64,000 bases of DNA from an uncultured Actinomycetes bacterium (GTDB taxonomy: Bacteria; Actinomycetota; Actinomycetes; Streptosporangiales; Streptosporangiaceae): the NCBI GenBank assembly GCA_963755815.1, contig CAVWLF010000001.1:1-64000 (forward strand), read 5' to 3'. The position numbers were made by a program, and so were the translations under genes. The notes under the pieces are model-generated. The model was not told where the DNA came from and did not search any database. It was given only the letters and a program-made list of their open reading frames with translations. Shown here one piece after another: positions 4,953 through 63,368 of the stretch. Within the stretch, counting starts at the first letter, position 1; each line of letters starts with the position of its first letter.

Positions 4953-5897
4953 TCAGGCGTGGGACGGCAGCTCGACGGTGACCGCGGTGGGGCCTCCGGG
5001 CGGACTGCTGATGCCCAGCTTGCCGTCCACGGTCCGGACCCGCTCAGTGAGCCCGGCCAGGCCGCCGCGGGCGACGACTCCGGCGCCGCCGGTGCCATCA
5101 TCGCTGACCCGCATCCGCAGCAGGCCAGGCACATGGACCGCCTCCAGCCTGGCATGCCGGGCGCCGCTGTGCTTGGTCACGTTGGTGAGCAGCTCGGCTG
5201 CGCAGAAGTAGGCGATGGTCTCGATCGCGGCCGACGGGCGCTCGGGCAGGTCGATAACGAGGTCGACGGGCAGGTCGCTGCGCGCGGCCAGGGTGGTGAG
5301 TGCGACGCCCAGGCCCTGGTCGAGCACTGAGGGGTGAATGCCGCGGGCTAGGTCACGCAGCTCGGTGATGGCCTCCTTGACCCCGCGGTGGGCAGCGGCG
5401 ACCAGCTCCAGGACCCGGTCCAGGTCGGTCTGCCCGGTCCCGTCGACCATGCCGCCGAGCTTCTTGGCGGCCAGCCCCAGCTTCATGGTGACAGCAACCA
5501 GCTGCGCCTGCGCGCCGTCGTGAAGGTCCCGCTCGATCCGGCGCAGCCTGGCGGCCGACTGGTCCACCAAATGCGCCCGGGACTGCTCCAGATCACGAAC
5601 CCGCTGCGGCAGCGGAGCAACGAGCAGCCGGTAGGCGATCCAGAGTTCCAGCGCTCCCACCGCTATCAGCGCCGCGCCCCACCAGAAGCCGTAAGAGCAC
5701 AGGATGACGCCAAGGATGAACAACCAGAGACTGACGGCCAAGCACGCGCGGCCCCAGGCCTTGGGGTGGCGATATGCGGCGGGCCGCAGCAGAATTCTCA
5801 TGATCAGAGGTTCCGAGGGAGCACTGTCGTCACTCGGCGCGTATGTCGAGATGCCGTCAGCGACCTGGGATGCCTTGGCCATTCGGGTCACCCACAT
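4953..5897 (-). CDS. sensor histidine kinase (HisKA_3 / NarX-DesK type)
   Basis: N-terminal 2-TM segment, H-box RIERDLHDGAQAQLVAV, and an HATPase region (AELLTNVTKHSGA ... DDGTGG). Lies directly upstream of the response regulator. The start is ambiguous (5897, 5882 or 5801). Confidence 0.85.
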   Translation of the reverse strand: MWVTRMAKASQVADGISTYAPSDDSAPSEPLIMRILLRPAAYRHPKAWGRACLAVSLWLFILGVILCSYGFWWGAALIAVGALELWIAYRLLVAPLPQRVRDLEQSRAHLVDQSAARLRRIERDLHDGAQAQLVAVTMKLGLAAKKLGGMVDGTGQTDLDRVLELVAAAHRGVKEAITELRDLARGIHPSVLDQGLGVALTTLAARSDLPVDLVIDLPERPSAAIETIAYFCAAELLTNVTKHSGARHARLEAVHVPGLLRMRVSDDGTGGAGVVARGGLAGLTERVRTVDGKLGISSPPGGPTAVTVELPSHA

Positions 5898-56931: not shown

Positions 56932-58026
56932 TTACCGTCCCGTCGCATAGCAGCGCAGCAGTTCCGCCACGGTCCGGCGCGCGCGGGGGCGCGGCGTGGC
57001 CCTGAGCACATCGTGATCGGCGGCCGCGATCGCGGCCAGCGCGGCCCGGCCGCCGGCCACGTATCCGGCCACGGCCGCCCGGGCGAACCCGCGCAGCGTG
57101 CCGACCAGCGGAGCGCCGGCATCGAGCAGCGCCCGGGCCCGCTGCGTCTCGAACCCGACCAGCGCGCGCAGCGCGGGCGACGACCGGGGCGCGGAAAGGT
57201 CGGACTCGGCGCAGCCGTACCTGGTCATGTCCTCGCCGGGCAGGTAGATACGCCCGGCCCGGAAGTCCTCGCCGACGTCCTGCCAGTGCTCGGCCAGCTG
57301 CAGCGCGGTGCAGACCTGATCGGAGAGCGCGGCCCGGGCCGGGGAGAACGCGCCGAAGGCATACAGCACAATCCGGCCGACCGGATTGGCCGAAAGGCGG
57401 CAGTATCCCTGCAGGTCATCGAATGTCGGATAGCGGGTGACCAGCTGGTCCTGCCGGTTGGCCTGGATCAGGTCCAGAAAGGGCTGCGGCGGGATCGCGC
57501 ACTGGCTGACGACCGGGCCGAGTGCGCGGATCACGCTCAGTTCCGGGCCGCCGCCCTGGCCCGCGTCCCGGTGGCCCGCCTCGTCCCGGTGACCCGCAGC
57601 GGCCTGATCCGCAGCGGGCCCCCCAGCGCCCGCCCGGTCCGCATCCGGCAGGCCCGCGCCCGCCTGGTCCGCATCCGGCGGGCTCGCACCCGCCCCGTCC
57701 GCATCCGGCAGGCCCGCGTACAGCCTGCCCAGGTCGGCCTCCAGCTCATCGAGCAGGCGGGCCCGCTCGGCGACCGGAGCGCGGTCCCCGATGTCATCGG
57801 CCGTGCGGGCGAAGCCGTAGACGGCCATCAGGTGCTGCCGGTGGCGCGCGGGCAGCAGCCGGAGGGCGACCGGGAAATTCTCGCCCGCCGACCGGGCCGC
57901 CATCGCCGCCTGGATACCCGGCCCGGTGGCCGGCGAAGGGCCGGTTGATGCCGGGCCCCCGTCGGCCGCGACCGCGATTGTGTCAGCCGACAGGCCGGAT
58001 TCCCGGTCGGGGAACCCGGTGCCCAT
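56932..58026 (-). CDS. hpnC: hydroxysqualene synthase (HpnC; squalene/phytoene synthase family) with internal repeat insertion
   Basis: GENFPVALRLLPARHRQHLMAVYGFARTADDIGD and HWQDVGEDFRAGRIYLP. Start taken at ATG 58026 because the upstream ORF extension is AT-rich with low GC3. Confidence 0.85.
   Translation of the reverse strand: MGTGFPDRESGLSADTIAVAADGGPASTGPSPATGPGIQAAMAARSAGENFPVALRLLPARHRQHLMAVYGFARTADDIGDRAPVAERARLLDELEADLGRLYAGLPDADGAGASPPDADQAGAGLPDADRAGAGGPAADQAAAGHRDEAGHRDAGQGGGPELSVIRALGPVVSQCAIPPQPFLDLIQANRQDQLVTRYPTFDDLQGYCRLSANPVGRIVLYAFGAFSPARAALSDQVCTALQLAEHWQDVGEDFRAGRIYLPGEDMTRYGCAESDLSAPRSSPALRALVGFETQRARALLDAGAPLVGTLRGFARAAVAGYVAGGRAALAAIAAADHDVLRATPRPRARRTVAELLRCYATGR
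57607..57726. repeat. 4 x 30-bp in-frame tandem repeat inside hpnC
   Basis: Units start at 57607 (degenerate), 57637, 57667 and 57697. Core GTCCGCATCCGGC(A/G)GGC(C/T)CGC. They encode (L/P)PDAD(G/Q/R)AGA(S/G)-type decapeptides. Confidence 0.75.
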
Positions 58027-58087
58027 TGGCGTCCGGTCGCGTGTCACGGTCCCTATTTCTGCACAGTTCTCATGGATTTGCAAATAA

Positions 58088-58166
58088 ATGACATCGACGT
58101 CATATGACATGCGTGTCGCTCTTCCCGGAAATCATGACGCGGACGTCACATGACGTCCGTGTCGCC
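58088..58166 (-). promoter_or_regulatory. candidate operator pair upstream of the hopanoid operon
   Basis: Two ~33-bp direct repeats, 46 bp apart: ATGACATCGACGTCATATGACATGCGTGTCGCT at 58088-58120 and ATGACGCGGACGTCACATGACGTCCGTGTCGCC at 58134-58166. Each contains an inverted repeat GACGTCA-N2-TGAC(G/A)T(C/G). They sit in an AT-rich stretch 62-140 nt upstream of the hpnC ATG, next to a TTGCAA hexamer (58077-58082). Confidence 0.4.
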
Positions 58167-58388
58167 TTTCCGCGTGACTCCCGCCAGATCGCGGCGGTGC
58201 GCAGATCATATAGGCCGGCCGGGCTGGCGGGAGCACATTATTCCGTTCGTGACCGATTGTCGGCACCGATTGCAATAAACCCGCCGCGGCGGAATTAATC
58301 TGCTAAGTAAAATTCATATCGCCGGAGCGGTCCCCCGATCGGGCCGCGCCGTCGCGATCAGGGCCGCCGCCAGGTGCCGCTGGGCAGC

Positions 58389-59489
58389 TCAGGCCCGCCA
58401 GATGAGAACCAGCGCGCAGTCGTCCGAGCTGCGCGCGCCCGCCTGCATGGACCGGACCAGCGCCCCGGCCCCGGCCCCGAAGCCCGATGCCACCAGCCGG
58501 TCCGCCTCGCCGAGCAGCCGGTCAATCCCGGCGTCAATGTCCCGGCCCGGCACTTCCACCAGCCCGTCGGTGTAAAGCATCAGCGCGTCACCCGGCCGCA
58601 GCGCGCCGCGTTCCGGAACGCTACGCAAATCGGGAACCACGCCGAGGACGATCCCCCGGGCCTGGGTAATCCGCCAGGTCCCGGCGCCCGCGTCAAAATG
58701 CGCGGCCGGCGGGTGCCCGGCAGAAGCGACAATGTAGTCCCCGGTCGCGAGGTCCAGCGACAGGTGCACGGCGGTGACGAAACCCTCCGTGGATGGCCCG
58801 CGCCGCAGATAGGCATTGCACGAAGCGAGAAACTCGCCGCGGGGCACGGAGCCAAGGAGCCCGCCGAATGCGCCGGATAGCAGCAGCGCACGGGTGCCGG
58901 CGTCGATCCCCTTTCCGGGCACGTCGACCAGCGCCACCTCAAGGGTCTTGCCGTCGCAGGCGGAGACCAGGAAATCGCCGCCGAACGACGCCCCGTCGGC
59001 CGGCTGCAGGATCGAGGTCGATTTCCAGCCGGGCGGCAGCGCGGGCAGCTTGCCCTGCGCCCGGATCCGGTCCCGCAGCTCGATCAGCATCTGGTCCCCG
59101 CGCAGGCCCTGCACGCCGAGCTTGGCCCGGGTCCTGGCCAGGACAAACGCGAACGCGGCAGTGATCACGATGGTCGCGATGATGCCAGGAGGAGCCCGGC
59201 CCGCCATCACGTCGTAGGCCAGCGTGGCTGCGACGACGCCGAACAGGACCAGCAGCGCGCGGGGCCAGAGCAGCAGGCCGCCGGCCATGATGGGCAGGAT
59301 CATCACCCCGGCCGGGAACCACGACTGGGACACGTGCCCGCCCGCGATGCCGATGCCCACGGTGACGGCGGCCAGCACGACGAAGAGCCGCCGGTTCCTG
59401 GTAATGAACTGCCGCCGAACCCAGCCGCGCACCCGTGCCGCGGCCGCCTGCGCGGCGCGGAGCTGGCGGTGCGGCACCGAGGTAACCAT
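58389..59489 (-). CDS. membrane-anchored PP2C (SpoIIE-type) serine/threonine phosphatase
   Basis: Start at MVTSVPHRQL (ATG 59489). About 4 TM helices, then PP2C motifs FGGDFLV, DVPGKGIDAG and LYTDGLVE. The longer ORF-track extension overlaps the plus-strand TGT-like gene and is rejected. Confidence 0.85.
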   Translation of the reverse strand: MVTSVPHRQLRAAQAAAARVRGWVRRQFITRNRRLFVVLAAVTVGIGIAGGHVSQSWFPAGVMILPIMAGGLLLWPRALLVLFGVVAATLAYDVMAGRAPPGIIATIVITAAFAFVLARTRAKLGVQGLRGDQMLIELRDRIRAQGKLPALPPGWKSTSILQPADGASFGGDFLVSACDGKTLEVALVDVPGKGIDAGTRALLLSGAFGGLLGSVPRGEFLASCNAYLRRGPSTEGFVTAVHLSLDLATGDYIVASAGHPPAAHFDAGAGTWRITQARGIVLGVVPDLRSVPERGALRPGDALMLYTDGLVEVPGRDIDAGIDRLLGEADRLVASGFGAGAGALVRSMQAGARSSDDCALVLIWRA

Positions 59490-59717: not shown

Positions 59718-60710
59718 ATGTTCCTGCCCGTCTACCAGCCGCACCGGCTGGCCGGGCTGCTCGACGGCTGGGCCGGCGGCCCGGCCGTCGACGGCTGCAT
59801 TGTCAATGCCTACTTCCTGTACAAGCAGCGCGACCTCAAGCGCAGGCTGACGACCGAGCAGGACCTGCACGACTACCTGTCCTTCCAGCGGCTGGTCGCG
59901 ACCGACTCCGGGGCGTTCCAGGGCTTCACCCGGCGGCTGTACCTCAAGAACGCCGACATCGTCAGGTTCCAGGACCGGATCGGCAGCGACGTGCTGGCGC
60001 CGCTGGACCTGGTCACCCCGCCCGGTGACAACCGCGAGACCGCGACGGCCAAGCTGCGCGCCACCGAGACCCGGATCCGGCAGGCGCTGCGCATCGTGGA
60101 GCGCGGCGTGCTGGCCGGGGTCCAGCAGGGCGGCCGGTTCCCCGACCTGCGGCACGAGAGCACCAGCGTGCTGCGCGACCTCGGCGTGCGCTACCTGGCG
60201 CTGGGCAGCCTGGTGCCGTTCTTCACCCGGAATCACGACATCCGGTTCGTCTGCGCGGTCGCGGCCGACGCCCGCCAGGTGATCGGGCCAGAGGTGCCCA
60301 TCCACCTTTACGGCGCCGGTGATCCGGTCGAGCTCCCGTTCCTGGTCGCCTCCGGGGTGAGCATCTTCGACTCCGCGTCCTACGGCCACTTCGCCCAGGG
60401 CGGCTGGTACATGACGCCGTACGGGTCGCTGCGCGACATCGGCCCGGTCCGCGCCGGGGAGTACCGGTGCGCGTGCCCGGTCTGCCCGCCGGACATGACG
60501 GAACTGCCCGGCGGCGATGACCTGTTCCGGCACAACCTCTGGACCATCCTCGCCACGATGGAGGAGATCAACCGCCGCCTCGAGGCCGGCACCCTGGCCG
60601 GGTACCTGGCCGAGGTGCTCGATGTGCACGGTGCCTGGTTCCCCGGCAGCGCGCTCGCCACGTCCTGGCGCACCGTGGAGGACGGACGTGACCAGCCAGC
60701 CAGTTCCTGA
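59718..60710 (+). CDS. tRNA-guanine transglycosylase-fold protein (TGT/DpdA-like 7-deazaguanine base-exchange enzyme)
   Basis: 330 aa with TGT-family blocks: PMFLPVYQ, ATDSGAFQG, LALGSLVP, HLYGAGDPVELPFLVASGVSIFDSASY, and the zinc motif CACPVCPP...FRHNLW. Shorter than housekeeping bacterial Tgt. Confidence 0.85.
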   Translation: MFLPVYQPHRLAGLLDGWAGGPAVDGCIVNAYFLYKQRDLKRRLTTEQDLHDYLSFQRLVATDSGAFQGFTRRLYLKNADIVRFQDRIGSDVLAPLDLVTPPGDNRETATAKLRATETRIRQALRIVERGVLAGVQQGGRFPDLRHESTSVLRDLGVRYLALGSLVPFFTRNHDIRFVCAVAADARQVIGPEVPIHLYGAGDPVELPFLVASGVSIFDSASYGHFAQGGWYMTPYGSLRDIGPVRAGEYRCACPVCPPDMTELPGGDDLFRHNLWTILATMEEINRRLEAGTLAGYLAEVLDVHGAWFPGSALATSWRTVEDGRDQPASS

Positions 60711-61599
60711 CGACCTGCTCGCCCGGCTCGCGGCGGACTTCGCCGACCAGGTGACGGCGCGCTACCGCATCGACCGCGCCGATGCGGTCGCGATGATCCT
60801 GGCCGACTGGCAGGGCCGGCCCCGGCTGGTCGCGGCGGCGGCCGCCGCGTCCTCGCCCGCGGAGGTGCGCAGGCTGCGGATCTATCAGGACGCAGCCGCC
60901 GCAACCAAGCGGGACATCTACCGCCGGCTCCGGCGTTACCGGGCGGCCGGGACCGCCTTCGACGATGCGGTGCGCGCGCTCGCCACCCTGGCGCCGGGCT
61001 GCCCGCCGGACCTGCTCGCCGGACGGATCACCGCGATCGCGGCCGCGCACGTGAGCACCGCCGAGCGGCTGCCGCATCTCGGCGAGTTCCTGGCCGCGCT
61101 GACCGCCGCCGCCGGCGCCTTCGAGACGGTGGTCGACGCCGGATGCGGGGTGCTGCCGTTGCTGTTCCCGTTCGACTCGGACGCCAGCGCCGGCGTTCGC
61201 GAGTACTGGGCCATGGACAAGGACCAGCGCGCCATCACCGCCCTGCGCGAGTACGCCCGCGTCCGCGCGGACCGGCGGATCCGCCCGCTGCACTGGAATA
61301 TCGCCGATGGCTGGCAGCCGGCGTTCGACGCCGGCCTGCCGGCCCGCTGTGACCTGGGCCTGCTGCTCAAGGTGGTGCCGGTGGTCCGGCGCCAGGACCC
61401 GGCCCTGCTGCGCGGGCTGGCCGCCATCCCGGCCGACCGGCTGGTGATCAGCGGCTCCCGGACGGCCATGGCCAAGCGCCGCGATATCGAGCGCCGGGAG
61501 ACCCGGGAACTGCAGCGCTTCTGCGCTGAGCATGCGCTGACGGAGATCGGGCGTTTCCGCACGGCCGACGAGGTCTGCCTGGTGGTGCAACGGGGATAG
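60688..61599 (+). CDS. FmrO/Sgm/Rmt-family SAM-dependent methyltransferase homolog (16S rRNA m7G1405 methyltransferase family)
   Basis: GTG start with GGAGGA 6 nt upstream, overlapping the TGT-like gene by 23 nt. Motifs recalled from Sgm/Rmt proteins: HVSTAERLPHLGEF, VVDAGCGVLPL (SAM motif I), WAMDKD, and CDLGLLLKVVPVV. The comparison is from memory, not a search. Confidence 0.72.
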   Translation: MTSQPVPDDLLARLAADFADQVTARYRIDRADAVAMILADWQGRPRLVAAAAAASSPAEVRRLRIYQDAAAATKRDIYRRLRRYRAAGTAFDDAVRALATLAPGCPPDLLAGRITAIAAAHVSTAERLPHLGEFLAALTAAAGAFETVVDAGCGVLPLLFPFDSDASAGVREYWAMDKDQRAITALREYARVRADRRIRPLHWNIADGWQPAFDAGLPARCDLGLLLKVVPVVRRQDPALLRGLAAIPADRLVISGSRTAMAKRRDIERRETRELQRFCAEHALTEIGRFRTADEVCLVVQRG

Positions 61600-61645
61600 T
61601 GCCCCGTTTCCGCGTTTTCTGGTGCGGGCGGAAACCGGCCGGCCG

Positions 61646-62011
61646 TCAGGATGGCTCGTCTTCGCCCCGGTACACGCAGCCGCAGGTGCACGTCTCGCGC
61701 ACGATGACCGCCGACAGCGGCAGCTGCCCGGTCAGCCGCCGCCAGATCCACCGGGCCAGGACCTCGCTGGTCGGGTTGTCCAGGCCCGCCACCTCGTTCA
61801 GGTAGCGGTGGTCCAGCTGATCATGCAGCGGCCGGAACGCCGCGGAAATCTCGGCGAAGTCCAGCACCCAGCCGGTCACCTGGTCCACGTCGCCCCGGAC
61901 GTGAATCTCCACCCGGTACGAGTGCCCGTGCAGGCGGGCGCACTTGTGCCCGGCGGGCACCTGCGGCAGCCGGTGCGCGGCCTCGAAGGTGAACTCGCGG
62001 TAGATCTCCAT
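61646..62011 (-). CDS. queD: 6-carboxy-5,6,7,8-tetrahydropterin synthase
   Basis: [16 protein letters not shown]...[11 protein letters not shown] (zinc-binding His triad and catalytic Cys context). The ATG overlaps the queE stop. Confidence 0.9.
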
Positions 62012-62658
62012 CAGGCAATTCCGGCGTACTTGTGGGTCTGCAGGCTGAGCCGCCACTGCGGGTGCGCCAGGCAGTATTCGATGGCGGCCCTGGTATTCGC
62101 CTCGCGATCGGGGCCATCCATCGGCTGCAGCAGGAAATTCGCGAAGTCGAGATCCTCGAACCGCCCGGGCTCCGCGCCCGGCTGCGGGAACACCAGCTTG
62201 AGGTCGTCACCTTCGGTCAGCACCAGGCCGGCGCCGGCCTTGGGGCTGACGCAGATCCAGTCCAGGCCGGCCGGGGCCGGCCGGGTGCCGTTGGTCTCCA
62301 CCGCCACCTCGAACCCCACGCCGTGCAGTGCGTCGACCGCGGCCTTATCGAGCTGCAGCAGCGGCTCTCCGCCGGTGCACACCACGTAGGGCCGGCTCCG
62401 CAGGTGCGGCTGGCCCTGCCACGCCCAGGCCACCGCGGCGGCGAGATGGGCGGCGCTGTCAAACCGGCCCCCGCCCGGCCCGTCGGTCCCGGTGAACTCG
62501 GTATCGCAGAACTGGCAGATCGCCCGATGGCGGTCACTCTCCCGCCCGGTCCACAGGTTGCAGCTGGTGAAGCGGCAGAACACGGCCGGCCAGCCGGCCC
62601 GGGTGCCCTCCCCCTGCAGCGTGTAGAAGATCTCCTTGACCCGGTACGCCGGTCTCAC
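62011..62658 (-). CDS. queE: 7-carboxy-7-deazaguanine synthase (radical SAM)
   Basis: [30 protein letters not shown]...CQFCDT. The GTG start overlaps the queC stop (GTGA at 62655-62658). Confidence 0.9.
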
Positions 62659-63368
62659 CCGGCGACCGCCAGCGCCGGGTCGGTCAGGCCCAGCTCGGCG
62701 AAGCCGCGCGCGCGCAGCAGGCACGAGTCACAGCTGCCGCAGGCCAGGCCGCCGGCCGGGTCGTAGCAGCTGTGGGTGAGCCCGTAGTCCACGCCGAGCT
62801 CCAGCCCGCGGCGGATCGTCCCGGCCTTGGTCAGCTGGATCAGGGGGGTGTGGATCTTCAGCTGCTGGCGGCCCTCGACACCGGCCTTGGTGGCCAGGTT
62901 GGCCATCCGCTCGAAGGCGGTGATGTACTCCGGCAGGCAGTCGGGGTAGCCGCTGTAGTCCAGCGCGCTCACCCCGATGAAGACGTCTGAGGCGCCCAGG
63001 GTCTCGGCCCAGGCGAGCGCGAACGACAGGAAGATCGTGTTCCTGGCCGGCACGTAGGTGACCGGAATCACGTCATCCAGGTCGTCGGCGCTGTCGTGGT
63101 GCGGCACGGCGATGGAGTCGTCGGTAAGCGCCGATCCGCCGAAGATGCGCAGGTCGATCTCGGCGATCACGTGCCGGGTGGTGCCCTGGGCGCGGGCCAC
63201 CCGCGCGGCGGCGTCAAGTTCCACCGTGTGCCGCTGCCCGTAGCGGAAGCTCAGCGCGTAAGCCTCGTAGTTCTCGCTGATGGCGACAGCCAGTGCGGTG
63301 GCCGAATCCAGGCCGCCGCTGAGCAGCACCACCGCTTTGCGTTGCGCCGTCATGGCCGGGCGAGTCAC
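62655..63368 (-). CDS. queC: 7-cyano-7-deazaguanine (preQ0) synthase
   Basis: PP-loop [10 protein letters not shown], then [19 protein letters not shown], and the C-terminal zinc motif CYDP...ACGSCDSC. Confidence 0.92.

Follow-up and report, generated by a model that had tools for sequence, protein, structure and literature searches.

Hopanoids serve widely as membrane lipids and are also geological biomarkers. Known control of hopanoid genes includes stress sigma-factor control in Rhodopseudomonas and developmental timing in Streptomyces, and to our knowledge no dedicated transcription factor or operator has been described for the core squalene/hopene genes of actinobacteria. A search of the literature turned up no DNA-binding regulator or operator dedicated to hpnC, no hopanoid regulator, and no known TetR operator of the TGACG/CGTCA type. 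Here, we analyze the region upstream of the squalene synthase gene hpnC in 64,000 nucleotides of DNA from an uncultured Actinomycetes bacterium of the Streptosporangiaceae (assembly GCA_963755815.1, contig CAVWLF010000001.1, positions 1 to 64,000), a stretch referred to throughout as the window. This region contains four palindromic sites in two pairs. In kind, they form an ordinary operator array for a transcription factor and do not represent a new type of system. The control proposed for them is transcriptional, as in Rhodopseudomonas and Streptomyces, but differs in having a specific operator array and a candidate one-component sensor.

The closest described systems are TetR-like regulators. 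FasR is a TetR-like activator: it binds the fas-acpS promoter at three inverted repeats, and acyl-CoA products release it (PMC7382501, PMC7652896). The FasR/fas-acpS system of Mycobacterium resembles the hpnC locus in pairing a TetR-fold regulator, at hpnC a candidate one, with a lipid-biosynthesis operon and several inverted repeats in the promoter region. As a feedback, lipid product abolishes the binding of FasR to DNA, and by analogy the candidate TetR protein may respond to a ligand and be an activator. The two systems differ in their targets, fatty-acid synthesis for FasR and hopanoid synthesis here. The best fold matches of the candidate include FasR, at a generic level only, and the candidate fails the FasR model with an identity of about 20%. 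The site sequence and the tandem 16+16 layout are specific to the clade of the window and are unlike the FasR sites. A second comparison is with the classical repressor/operator pairs of the TetR family, TetR-tetO and QacR-IR1, the latter bound by two dimers. The shared features are palindromic half-sites about 10 bp apart center to center, two adjacent dimer sites and, in many relatives of the window, a regulator gene divergent from the target. The hpnC sites differ in lying wholly upstream of the −35 element and overlapping neither promoter, the candidate TetR promoter has no site, and the regulator gene of the window is not adjacent.

The joint explanation that best fits the sequence data, with a probability of about 0.5, is a four-operator array at a leaderless promoter that would be activated through RNA polymerase contact by a TetR-family protein acting in trans. 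According to this model, a dimeric helix-turn-helix (HTH) regulator would bind four 16-bp operators (TGACry-NN-ryGTCA) in two head-to-tail pairs and control the promoter of the hpnC-hpnD-hpnE-polyprenyl synthase-shc-hpnG/ispH-hpnH operon. The promoter, TTGCAA followed after 17 nt by AGAAAT, would give a leaderless mRNA from the GTG at 58047. The TetR-family regulator would be made elsewhere in the genome, would contact RNA polymerase to activate transcription, and would have its DNA binding modulated by a lipid or isoprenoid ligand. The analysis supplies a precise cis-element with a search pattern, a predicted start, a candidate regulator family, and more than 100 natural promoter variants. 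These provide a handle on the signal for hopanoid synthesis in abundant uncultured peat- and forest-soil actinobacteria, where regulation is poorly understood.

Paired palindromes and the hpnC promoter

The spacer at 58048–58388 separates hpnC from a PP2C phosphatase gene, and both genes are on the minus strand. An earlier note on this DNA had described the spacer as an AT-rich control region with paired operators. The G+C fraction is 0.585–0.595 across 58000–58299 compared to 0.70–0.80 on both flanks, in agreement with that description. The left-hand gene, hpnC (56932..58047, minus strand; start moved to the GTG at 58047–58045), was identified by the HpnC profile TIGR03464, which it matches with 288.5 bits against a cutoff of 250.45. 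The HpnD, HpnE, and HpnH proteins of the window are likewise above their model cutoffs. The gene order after hpnC on the same strand is hpnD, hpnE, a polyprenyl synthase gene, shc (squalene-hopene cyclase), an hpnG-like/LytB gene (hpnG/ispH), and hpnH.

The two direct repeats reported earlier are present at 58088–58125 and 58134–58171, 46 bp apart and 79% identical over 38 nt. The distal inverted repeat is perfect (GACGTCACATGACGTC, 58142–58157), and the proximal inverted repeat is imperfect, with 2 mismatches (GACGTCATATGACATG, 58096–58111). A TTGCAA hexamer at 58078–58083 is 4 nt from the proximal repeat, also as described. The proposed operator, GACGTCA-N2-TGACGTC, is present in the sequence but is not the conserved unit. 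It is the junction of two abutting 16-bp palindromes, and it was rejected as the unit because its outer GAC/GTC fall in variable spacer positions and are missing from solitary sites. Solitary sites in relatives, such as ATATGACATTTACGTCAGGC, carry one TGAC-N6-GTCA and nothing more, which sets the register. The conserved unit is therefore nTGACry-NN-ryGTCAn, a palindrome of 16 bp that occurs in head-to-tail pairs. It follows that the two repeats hold four sites in two pairs, not the two operators counted previously. The earlier note was right in outline and wrong in register, and the array is real and functional-looking.

On the hpnC strand, the order is GCGACACGGACGTCAT|GTGACGTCCGCGTCAT, 14 nt, GCGACACGCATGTCAT|ATGACGTCGATGTCAT, TTAT, and TTGCAA. 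Sites were scored with a position-weight matrix (PWM) built from 49 sites, and their positions are given relative to the start that we infer below. All four are annotated on the minus strand. O1 (58088..58103; −41..−56; 25.6 bits) is ATGACGTCGATGTCAT, a perfect TGAC-N6-GTCA palindrome, and an equivalent site was found in every clade promoter examined. O2 (58104..58119; −57..−72; 17.9 bits) is GCGACACGCATGTCAT and abuts O1. Its outer half-site is CGAC, as in most relatives, and the clade consensus of the pair from 109 distinct promoters is nCGACrynnnyGTCAk|nTGACGynnryGTCAT. O3 (58134..58149; −87..−102; 20.2 bits) is GTGACGTCCGCGTCAT, the proximal half of the duplicated pair, and locus L004 also has a second pair matching the pair of O3. 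O4 (58150..58165; −103..−118; 17.3 bits) is GCGACACGGACGTCAT and belongs to direct-repeat family D2. The four scores of 17.3–25.6 bits are all in the spacer, and the next best site in the 64 kb scores 13.4 bits. The information in the PWM is concentrated in TGACry and ryGTCA, with 0.04 bit at central positions 8–9. TGAC and GTCA are each conserved to at least 0.96, except for the outermost T/A at 0.84. Thus, half-sites about one helical turn apart are conserved and the spacer is variable, the dyad symmetry of an operator for a dimeric HTH protein.

Counts within the window depend on the unit chosen. The 16-mer of the earlier note, allowing up to 3 mismatches, gives 3 matches compared to 3.0 expected by chance and is unremarkable alone. 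The sequence TGACRYNNRYGTCA has 2 exact matches compared to 0.02 expected, and the 28-nt tandem composite occurs at 2 places (4 strand matches) compared to 0.03 expected. Both places are in the spacer, and the rest of the 64 kb has none.

HpnC was used to search a genome collection. Of the 80 loci retrieved, the 12 closest all carry the tandem pair directly upstream of hpnC. These 12 come from Streptosporangiaceae-like and unclassified actinobacterial metagenome-assembled genomes from peat, palsa, and other soils. The remaining 68 loci (L013–L080) lack the pair before hpnC; they include Streptomyces, Kribbella, Pseudonocardia, Amycolatopsis, and Gaiellaceae. Metagenome contigs were scanned with a 30-nt one-pair pattern, YGACRYNNNYRTCAKNTGACRYNNNYGTCA, that matched at least 120 loci; the metagenome counts given here refer to the 120 listed. 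The pair is 3–5 nt from a downstream TTGC in 107 of these loci, a conserved promoter position. The gene directly downstream is hpnC in 98 of the 107, and the remaining 9 contigs end less than 230 bp from the pair. Conservation upstream of hpnC orthologs, a point on which the earlier note had staked its reading, holds within a large actinobacterial clade. The description of the spacer as an hpnC control region with predicted dimeric-regulator sites abutting a −35-like TTGCAA is likewise supported. The conservation in more than 100 orthologous promoters settles the question of a chance origin in the negative.

The −35-like hexamer TTGCAA (58078..58083, minus strand) is 4 nt downstream of O1. Its TTGC is invariant across 107 distinct promoters and starts 4 nt after the final GTCA of the pattern in 93, 3 nt after it in 13, and 5 nt after it in 1. 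A non-consensus −10-like AGAAAT (58055..58060, minus strand) follows 17 nt after the −35. The blocks conserved after the pair are TTGC(A/C/T)(A/T), an A-rich block ending in T, and GTG. An open in-frame GTG (95 promoters) or ATG (5 promoters) lies 35–37 nt after the first T of TTGC in 100 of the 101 distinct promoters with enough downstream sequence. The interchange of GTG and ATG at a fixed place is a start-codon signature. The triplet is 6–7 nt after the A-rich −10-like block, the arrangement of a leaderless promoter, and no Shine-Dalgarno sequence fits in the few bases before it. A strict sigma-70 scan found no promoter in the window spacer, which is why the hpnC promoter is called non-consensus; it was defined by conservation and by the fixed distance to the start codon. 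Most likely, the hpnC mRNA is leaderless and begins at the GTG at 58047–58045, 7 codons upstream of the ATG at 58026. This predicted start places the sites at −41..−72 and −87..−118.

Other assignments for these sequences were considered and rejected. An extracytoplasmic function (ECF)-type promoter, GAGAAC-N17-CGTGAC, does not fit: GAAC is not conserved in L009 and L012, and CGTGAC contains the conserved start codon. In an informal comparison, the sites of BldD, CRP/GlxR, McbR, the LysR box, and WhiA (GACAC) do not seem to fit in spacing or sequence, and GACAC is not conserved in L001 and L003.

The architecture of the array varies around the proximal pair, which is universal across the clade promoters examined. 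Many loci without an adjacent TetR gene have one to three auxiliary sites 140–177 bp further upstream. Extra whole pairs at 46–50 bp spacing are found in a few loci: the window and L004, each with two pairs, and L007, L008, and L163. Both the window and L004 combine a duplicated pair with a decayed distal auxiliary site. The remnant in the window (58302..58317, minus strand) is ATGAATTTTACTTAGC, aligned with ATGACATTTACGTCAG of L001. It scores −5.1 bits compared to 18–25 bits for the homologous distal site in L001, L002, L007, and L008. Eleven of the 14 TetR-linked metagenome loci had at least 500 bp of upstream sequence to scan, and no site beyond the proximal pair was detected in them at a 14-bit threshold. 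PWM and composite scans found no further sites outside the hpnC promoter in the window or in about 776 kb of related loci.

A candidate TetR-family regulator

The gene context of the relatives points to a binder. Most likely it is an uncharacterized TetR-family protein, which for the window would be encoded elsewhere in the genome and act in trans. A TetR gene adjacent to and divergent from hpnC was found in L009, L012, L081, L083, L212, L214, L215, L218–L220, and in 14 of the metagenome loci. The operator pair lies between the two genes in L009, L012, L081, L083, and those 14. The reverse search, starting from the TetR protein, recovered a large and tightly conserved family. The genes for 6 of the 8 representatives looked up are divergent from hpnC-hpnD-hpnE and 2 are unlinked, and the pair was checked and found in 4 of the 6 linked loci (L081, L083, L212, and L214). 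When hpnC is clustered at 70% identity, 8 of the 18 clusters hold TetR-linked loci. The linkage is therefore widespread and not the result of one recent event.

The DNA-reading portion of the protein is highly constrained. The HTH segment RV(E/D)D(I/V)VRRA(K/N)TSHGTFYLYF is invariant save three conservative positions in linked and unlinked members, with the invariant DNA-reading segment RVEDIVRRAKTSHGTFYLYF. The RPS-GGG(I/L)PA arm that precedes it is equally invariant save conservative positions in both groups. The unlinked copies have no PWM match of 12 bits or more within 4 kb, except for one 15-bit background-type match inside L084, and the tandem composite is absent from the 9 loci (L082 and L084–L091) around TetR genes not linked to hpnC. 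If the unlinked proteins bind the same sequence, their target would thus be remote, since there is no local site.

The family has no named counterpart in the models searched. No named NCBIfam TetR subfamily reaches its cutoff with the representatives P0113 (unlinked) and P0035 (linked). Against the FasR model NF053731, P0113 scores 25.7 bits compared to a cutoff of 330, and P0035 has no FasR match. The best PDB sequence match has E = 4e-9. Top matches in the fold search include FasR, PfmR, acyl-CoA-binding FadR proteins, and the steroid-binding MtrR.

The TetR gene has its own promoter with a conserved TAGTCT −10, 150–250 bp from the pair, and the gene appears leaderless. The leaderless promoter and start module (GGGCTAGTCTCCCGAACATGACCAGGGAACC, TetR strand) is tandemly duplicated two or three times in L083, L101, L136, L156, and L202. 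These modules lie on the TetR side, 150–330 bp upstream of the operator pair. Separately, the TetR-linked loci L083, L101, L126, L136, L155, L156, and L177 have a second conserved element, GTTTGCA(A/G)nG(C/G)TCA, about 20–30 nt upstream of the pair on its TetR side; the window lacks it. The element is an approximate mirror image of the TTTGCA found toward hpnC and possibly part of a divergent promoter.

Direction of control and competing explanations

The sign of regulation is the weakest step, and activation is somewhat ahead of repression. Activation is favored by three features of the promoters. The sites never overlap the core promoter: none covers the −35, −10, or start in 107 diverged promoters, and no operator overlaps the core promoter of either the target or the TetR gene, with the sites ending at −41. 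The gap from operator to TTGC is fixed at 3–5 nt, as tight as the geometry of the promoter itself. The core promoter elements are non-consensus. FasR serves as the precedent for a TetR-like activator with feedback from a lipid product.

Several observations weigh against activation by a TetR protein supplied in trans. A tblastn search detected no TetR homolog in the 64 kb, so the window has no adjacent divergent TetR gene. No locus among those listed combines a PP2C-type with a TetR-type neighborhood. The TetR promoter carries no operator site, unlike classic autoregulated TetR pairs. The AlphaFold model is moderate (pLDDT 70.9) with a disordered N terminus, and the fold search returned only generic TetR folds at 15–24% identity. 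Most TetR-family proteins are repressors, and the auxiliary sites 140–177 bp upstream and the duplicated pairs would also suit repression by looping.

The chief competitor keeps the same sites and the same TetR binder and makes it a classical repressor. Two to four dimers extending upstream from −41 would block the contacts of the RNA polymerase alpha-subunit and sigma region 4. This block may be aided by looping to distal or duplicated sites, and release by ligand would derepress hopanoid synthesis. The prevalence of repressors in the TetR family suits this arrangement, as do the end of O1 only 4 nt from the −35 box, the TetR gene divergent from hpnC in many loci, and the looping- or spreading-like layout of auxiliary sites in most non-TetR loci and of extra pairs at 46–50 bp. 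It is set against the 107 promoters in which no site covers a core element, a gap to the −35 that is tighter than steric blocking needs, and a weak-consensus core promoter that makes a repressor less necessary. On balance, we regard repression as possible but doubtful.

The operators could also be real and serve a different regulator, either in the lineage of the window or in all lineages, with the TetR protein a coincidental neighbor or a second regulator. The window has no TetR gene and the TetR promoter has no site, and PP2C-type lineages could use another regulator because their neighborhoods and those of the TetR type are mutually exclusive among the loci listed. However, the TetR–hpnC association was recovered in both directions, from the motif (14 metagenome loci) and from the protein (6 of 8 representatives), and it spans 8 hpnC clusters. 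The DNA-reading helices remain invariant in unlinked copies without a local site. No other DNA-binding gene recurs upstream of hpnC among the neighborhoods examined: the other upstream neighbors are PP2C, GNAT-SCP2, permease, and conservon genes, and these were ruled out as regulators because none is DNA-binding. We consider a different regulator unlikely.

A more specific form of the activator model is offered tentatively. The TetR protein may be a dedicated one-component lipid sensor, a FasR-like activator of hopanoid synthesis across a large and mostly uncultured lineage of acid- and peat-soil actinobacteria, whose gene was relocated in window-type lineages with the PP2C gene in its place. 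The sensor would belong to an uncharacterized TetR subfamily, marked by a Gly-rich arm that is conserved and an N terminus that is long and disordered. It would act from tandem operators directly adjoining the −35 of a leaderless hpnC promoter. The presence of a membrane PP2C phosphatase where the TetR gene would be would hint at an added phosphorylation input.

The palindromes are predicted to be protein-binding sites rather than RNA elements because the symmetric positions do not covary. For 61 proximal and 87 second sites, all distinct, mutual information at positions 6/11, 7/10, and 8/9 does not exceed 0.09 bit, and the observed Watson-Crick pairing at symmetric positions is about as expected. 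An RNA role would have the repeats act as a leader hairpin, riboswitch, or attenuator, or alternatively as a DNA cruciform. The transcript would come from a TATGAT −10-like box (58205..58210, minus strand), aligned with TAGGAT, TACGAT, or TATGAT in L001, L002, L004, L007, and L008. This box is a possible second promoter: it has the textbook form of an actinobacterial −10 and precedes the site array by about 40 nt, and if active its transcript would cross all four sites. The conservation of this box in the closest relatives and a 153-nt stretch that folds with z = −2.69 speak for an RNA. However, the favorable fold comes from base pairing between the two palindromic units, the long hairpin cannot form in most relatives, whose promoters have a single pair, and the spacer bases of relatives are not complementary between the arms. 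There were 0 Rfam matches at E ≤ 1, and the sites are upstream of the predicted leaderless start. An RNA or cruciform function is thus very improbable.

The direct repeat is short, has inverted repeats inside it, and lies in a spacer richer in A+T, which would suit a chance repeat or a MITE- or REP-like mobile or dispersed repeat that landed there. This explanation is already refuted by 2 places compared to 0.02–0.03 expected, no further copy in the window, and a position upstream of hpnC that is constant in synteny across more than 100 loci.

Flanking genes and other matches to the pattern

The same-strand upstream neighbor is a SpoIIE/PP2C-type phosphatase gene (58389..59420, start approximate, minus strand; PF07228, E = 3.8e-29) with its stop codon at 58389. 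The earlier note had named a PP2C phosphatase as the neighbor and found no regulator gene adjacent, and both points stand. A terminator-like hairpin with a T-rich run (58280..58293, minus strand) lies about 95 nt past the stop codon. The PP2C gene is the same-strand upstream neighbor within 710 bp in 49 of the metagenome loci and is further off in 6 more. Divergent conservon-type genes (NIT-domain histidine-kinase-like, Roadblock/LC7, and ATP_bind_1 GTPase) occur in L011, L134, L151, L162, L164, and L166. Either this set separates the PP2C gene from the hpnC promoter, or it takes the place of that gene.

The pattern matched 13 metagenome loci that have no TTGC after the pair. Two of these end at the contig edge just past a typical pair. 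Several others come from low-G+C sequences or a tandem array, roughly the chance level for a 37-bit pattern. Only L193 and perhaps L111 may be meaningful extra targets. In L193 (2.1 kb, 67% G+C), three head-to-tail TGACG-N4-CGTCA-type sites at 1930–1995 abut the promoter-like TTGAGC-N17-CACTAT, with TTGAGC as its −35 box, upstream of a class-III aminotransferase gene. This gene may be a second regulon member because its product belongs to the enzyme class of the hopanoid aminotransferase HpnO. In L111, a tandem pair and a third partial copy (AATGACGCGTCCGTC repeated) at 5100–5210 lie about 700 bp upstream of an open frame holding dxs. The contig is probably not actinobacterial, since it is 63% G+C and encodes an outer-membrane beta-barrel protein, and its sites may be a coincidence or an analogous isoprenoid control site. 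L176, a 40% G+C contig, repeats a 16-bp unit (CTGTCATGTGACATRC) at least 14 times in succession at 2602–2903. This array matches the search pattern by happenstance and is unrelated to hpnC.

Two further features of the window were recorded. In HpnC, the match to the HpnC model is split into two stretches by a low-complexity insertion (PDADGAGASPPDADQAGAG...GHRDEAGHRDAGQGGG; about 57550–57715, minus strand). It is about 55 residues long and rich in Asp, Ala, Gly, and Pro. A cluster at 59718–63368 encodes a TGT-like tRNA-guanine transglycosylase, an FmrO-type rRNA methyltransferase, a radical-SAM protein, and QueC, a composition that suggests a 7-deazapurine pathway, possibly with a resistance methyltransferase.

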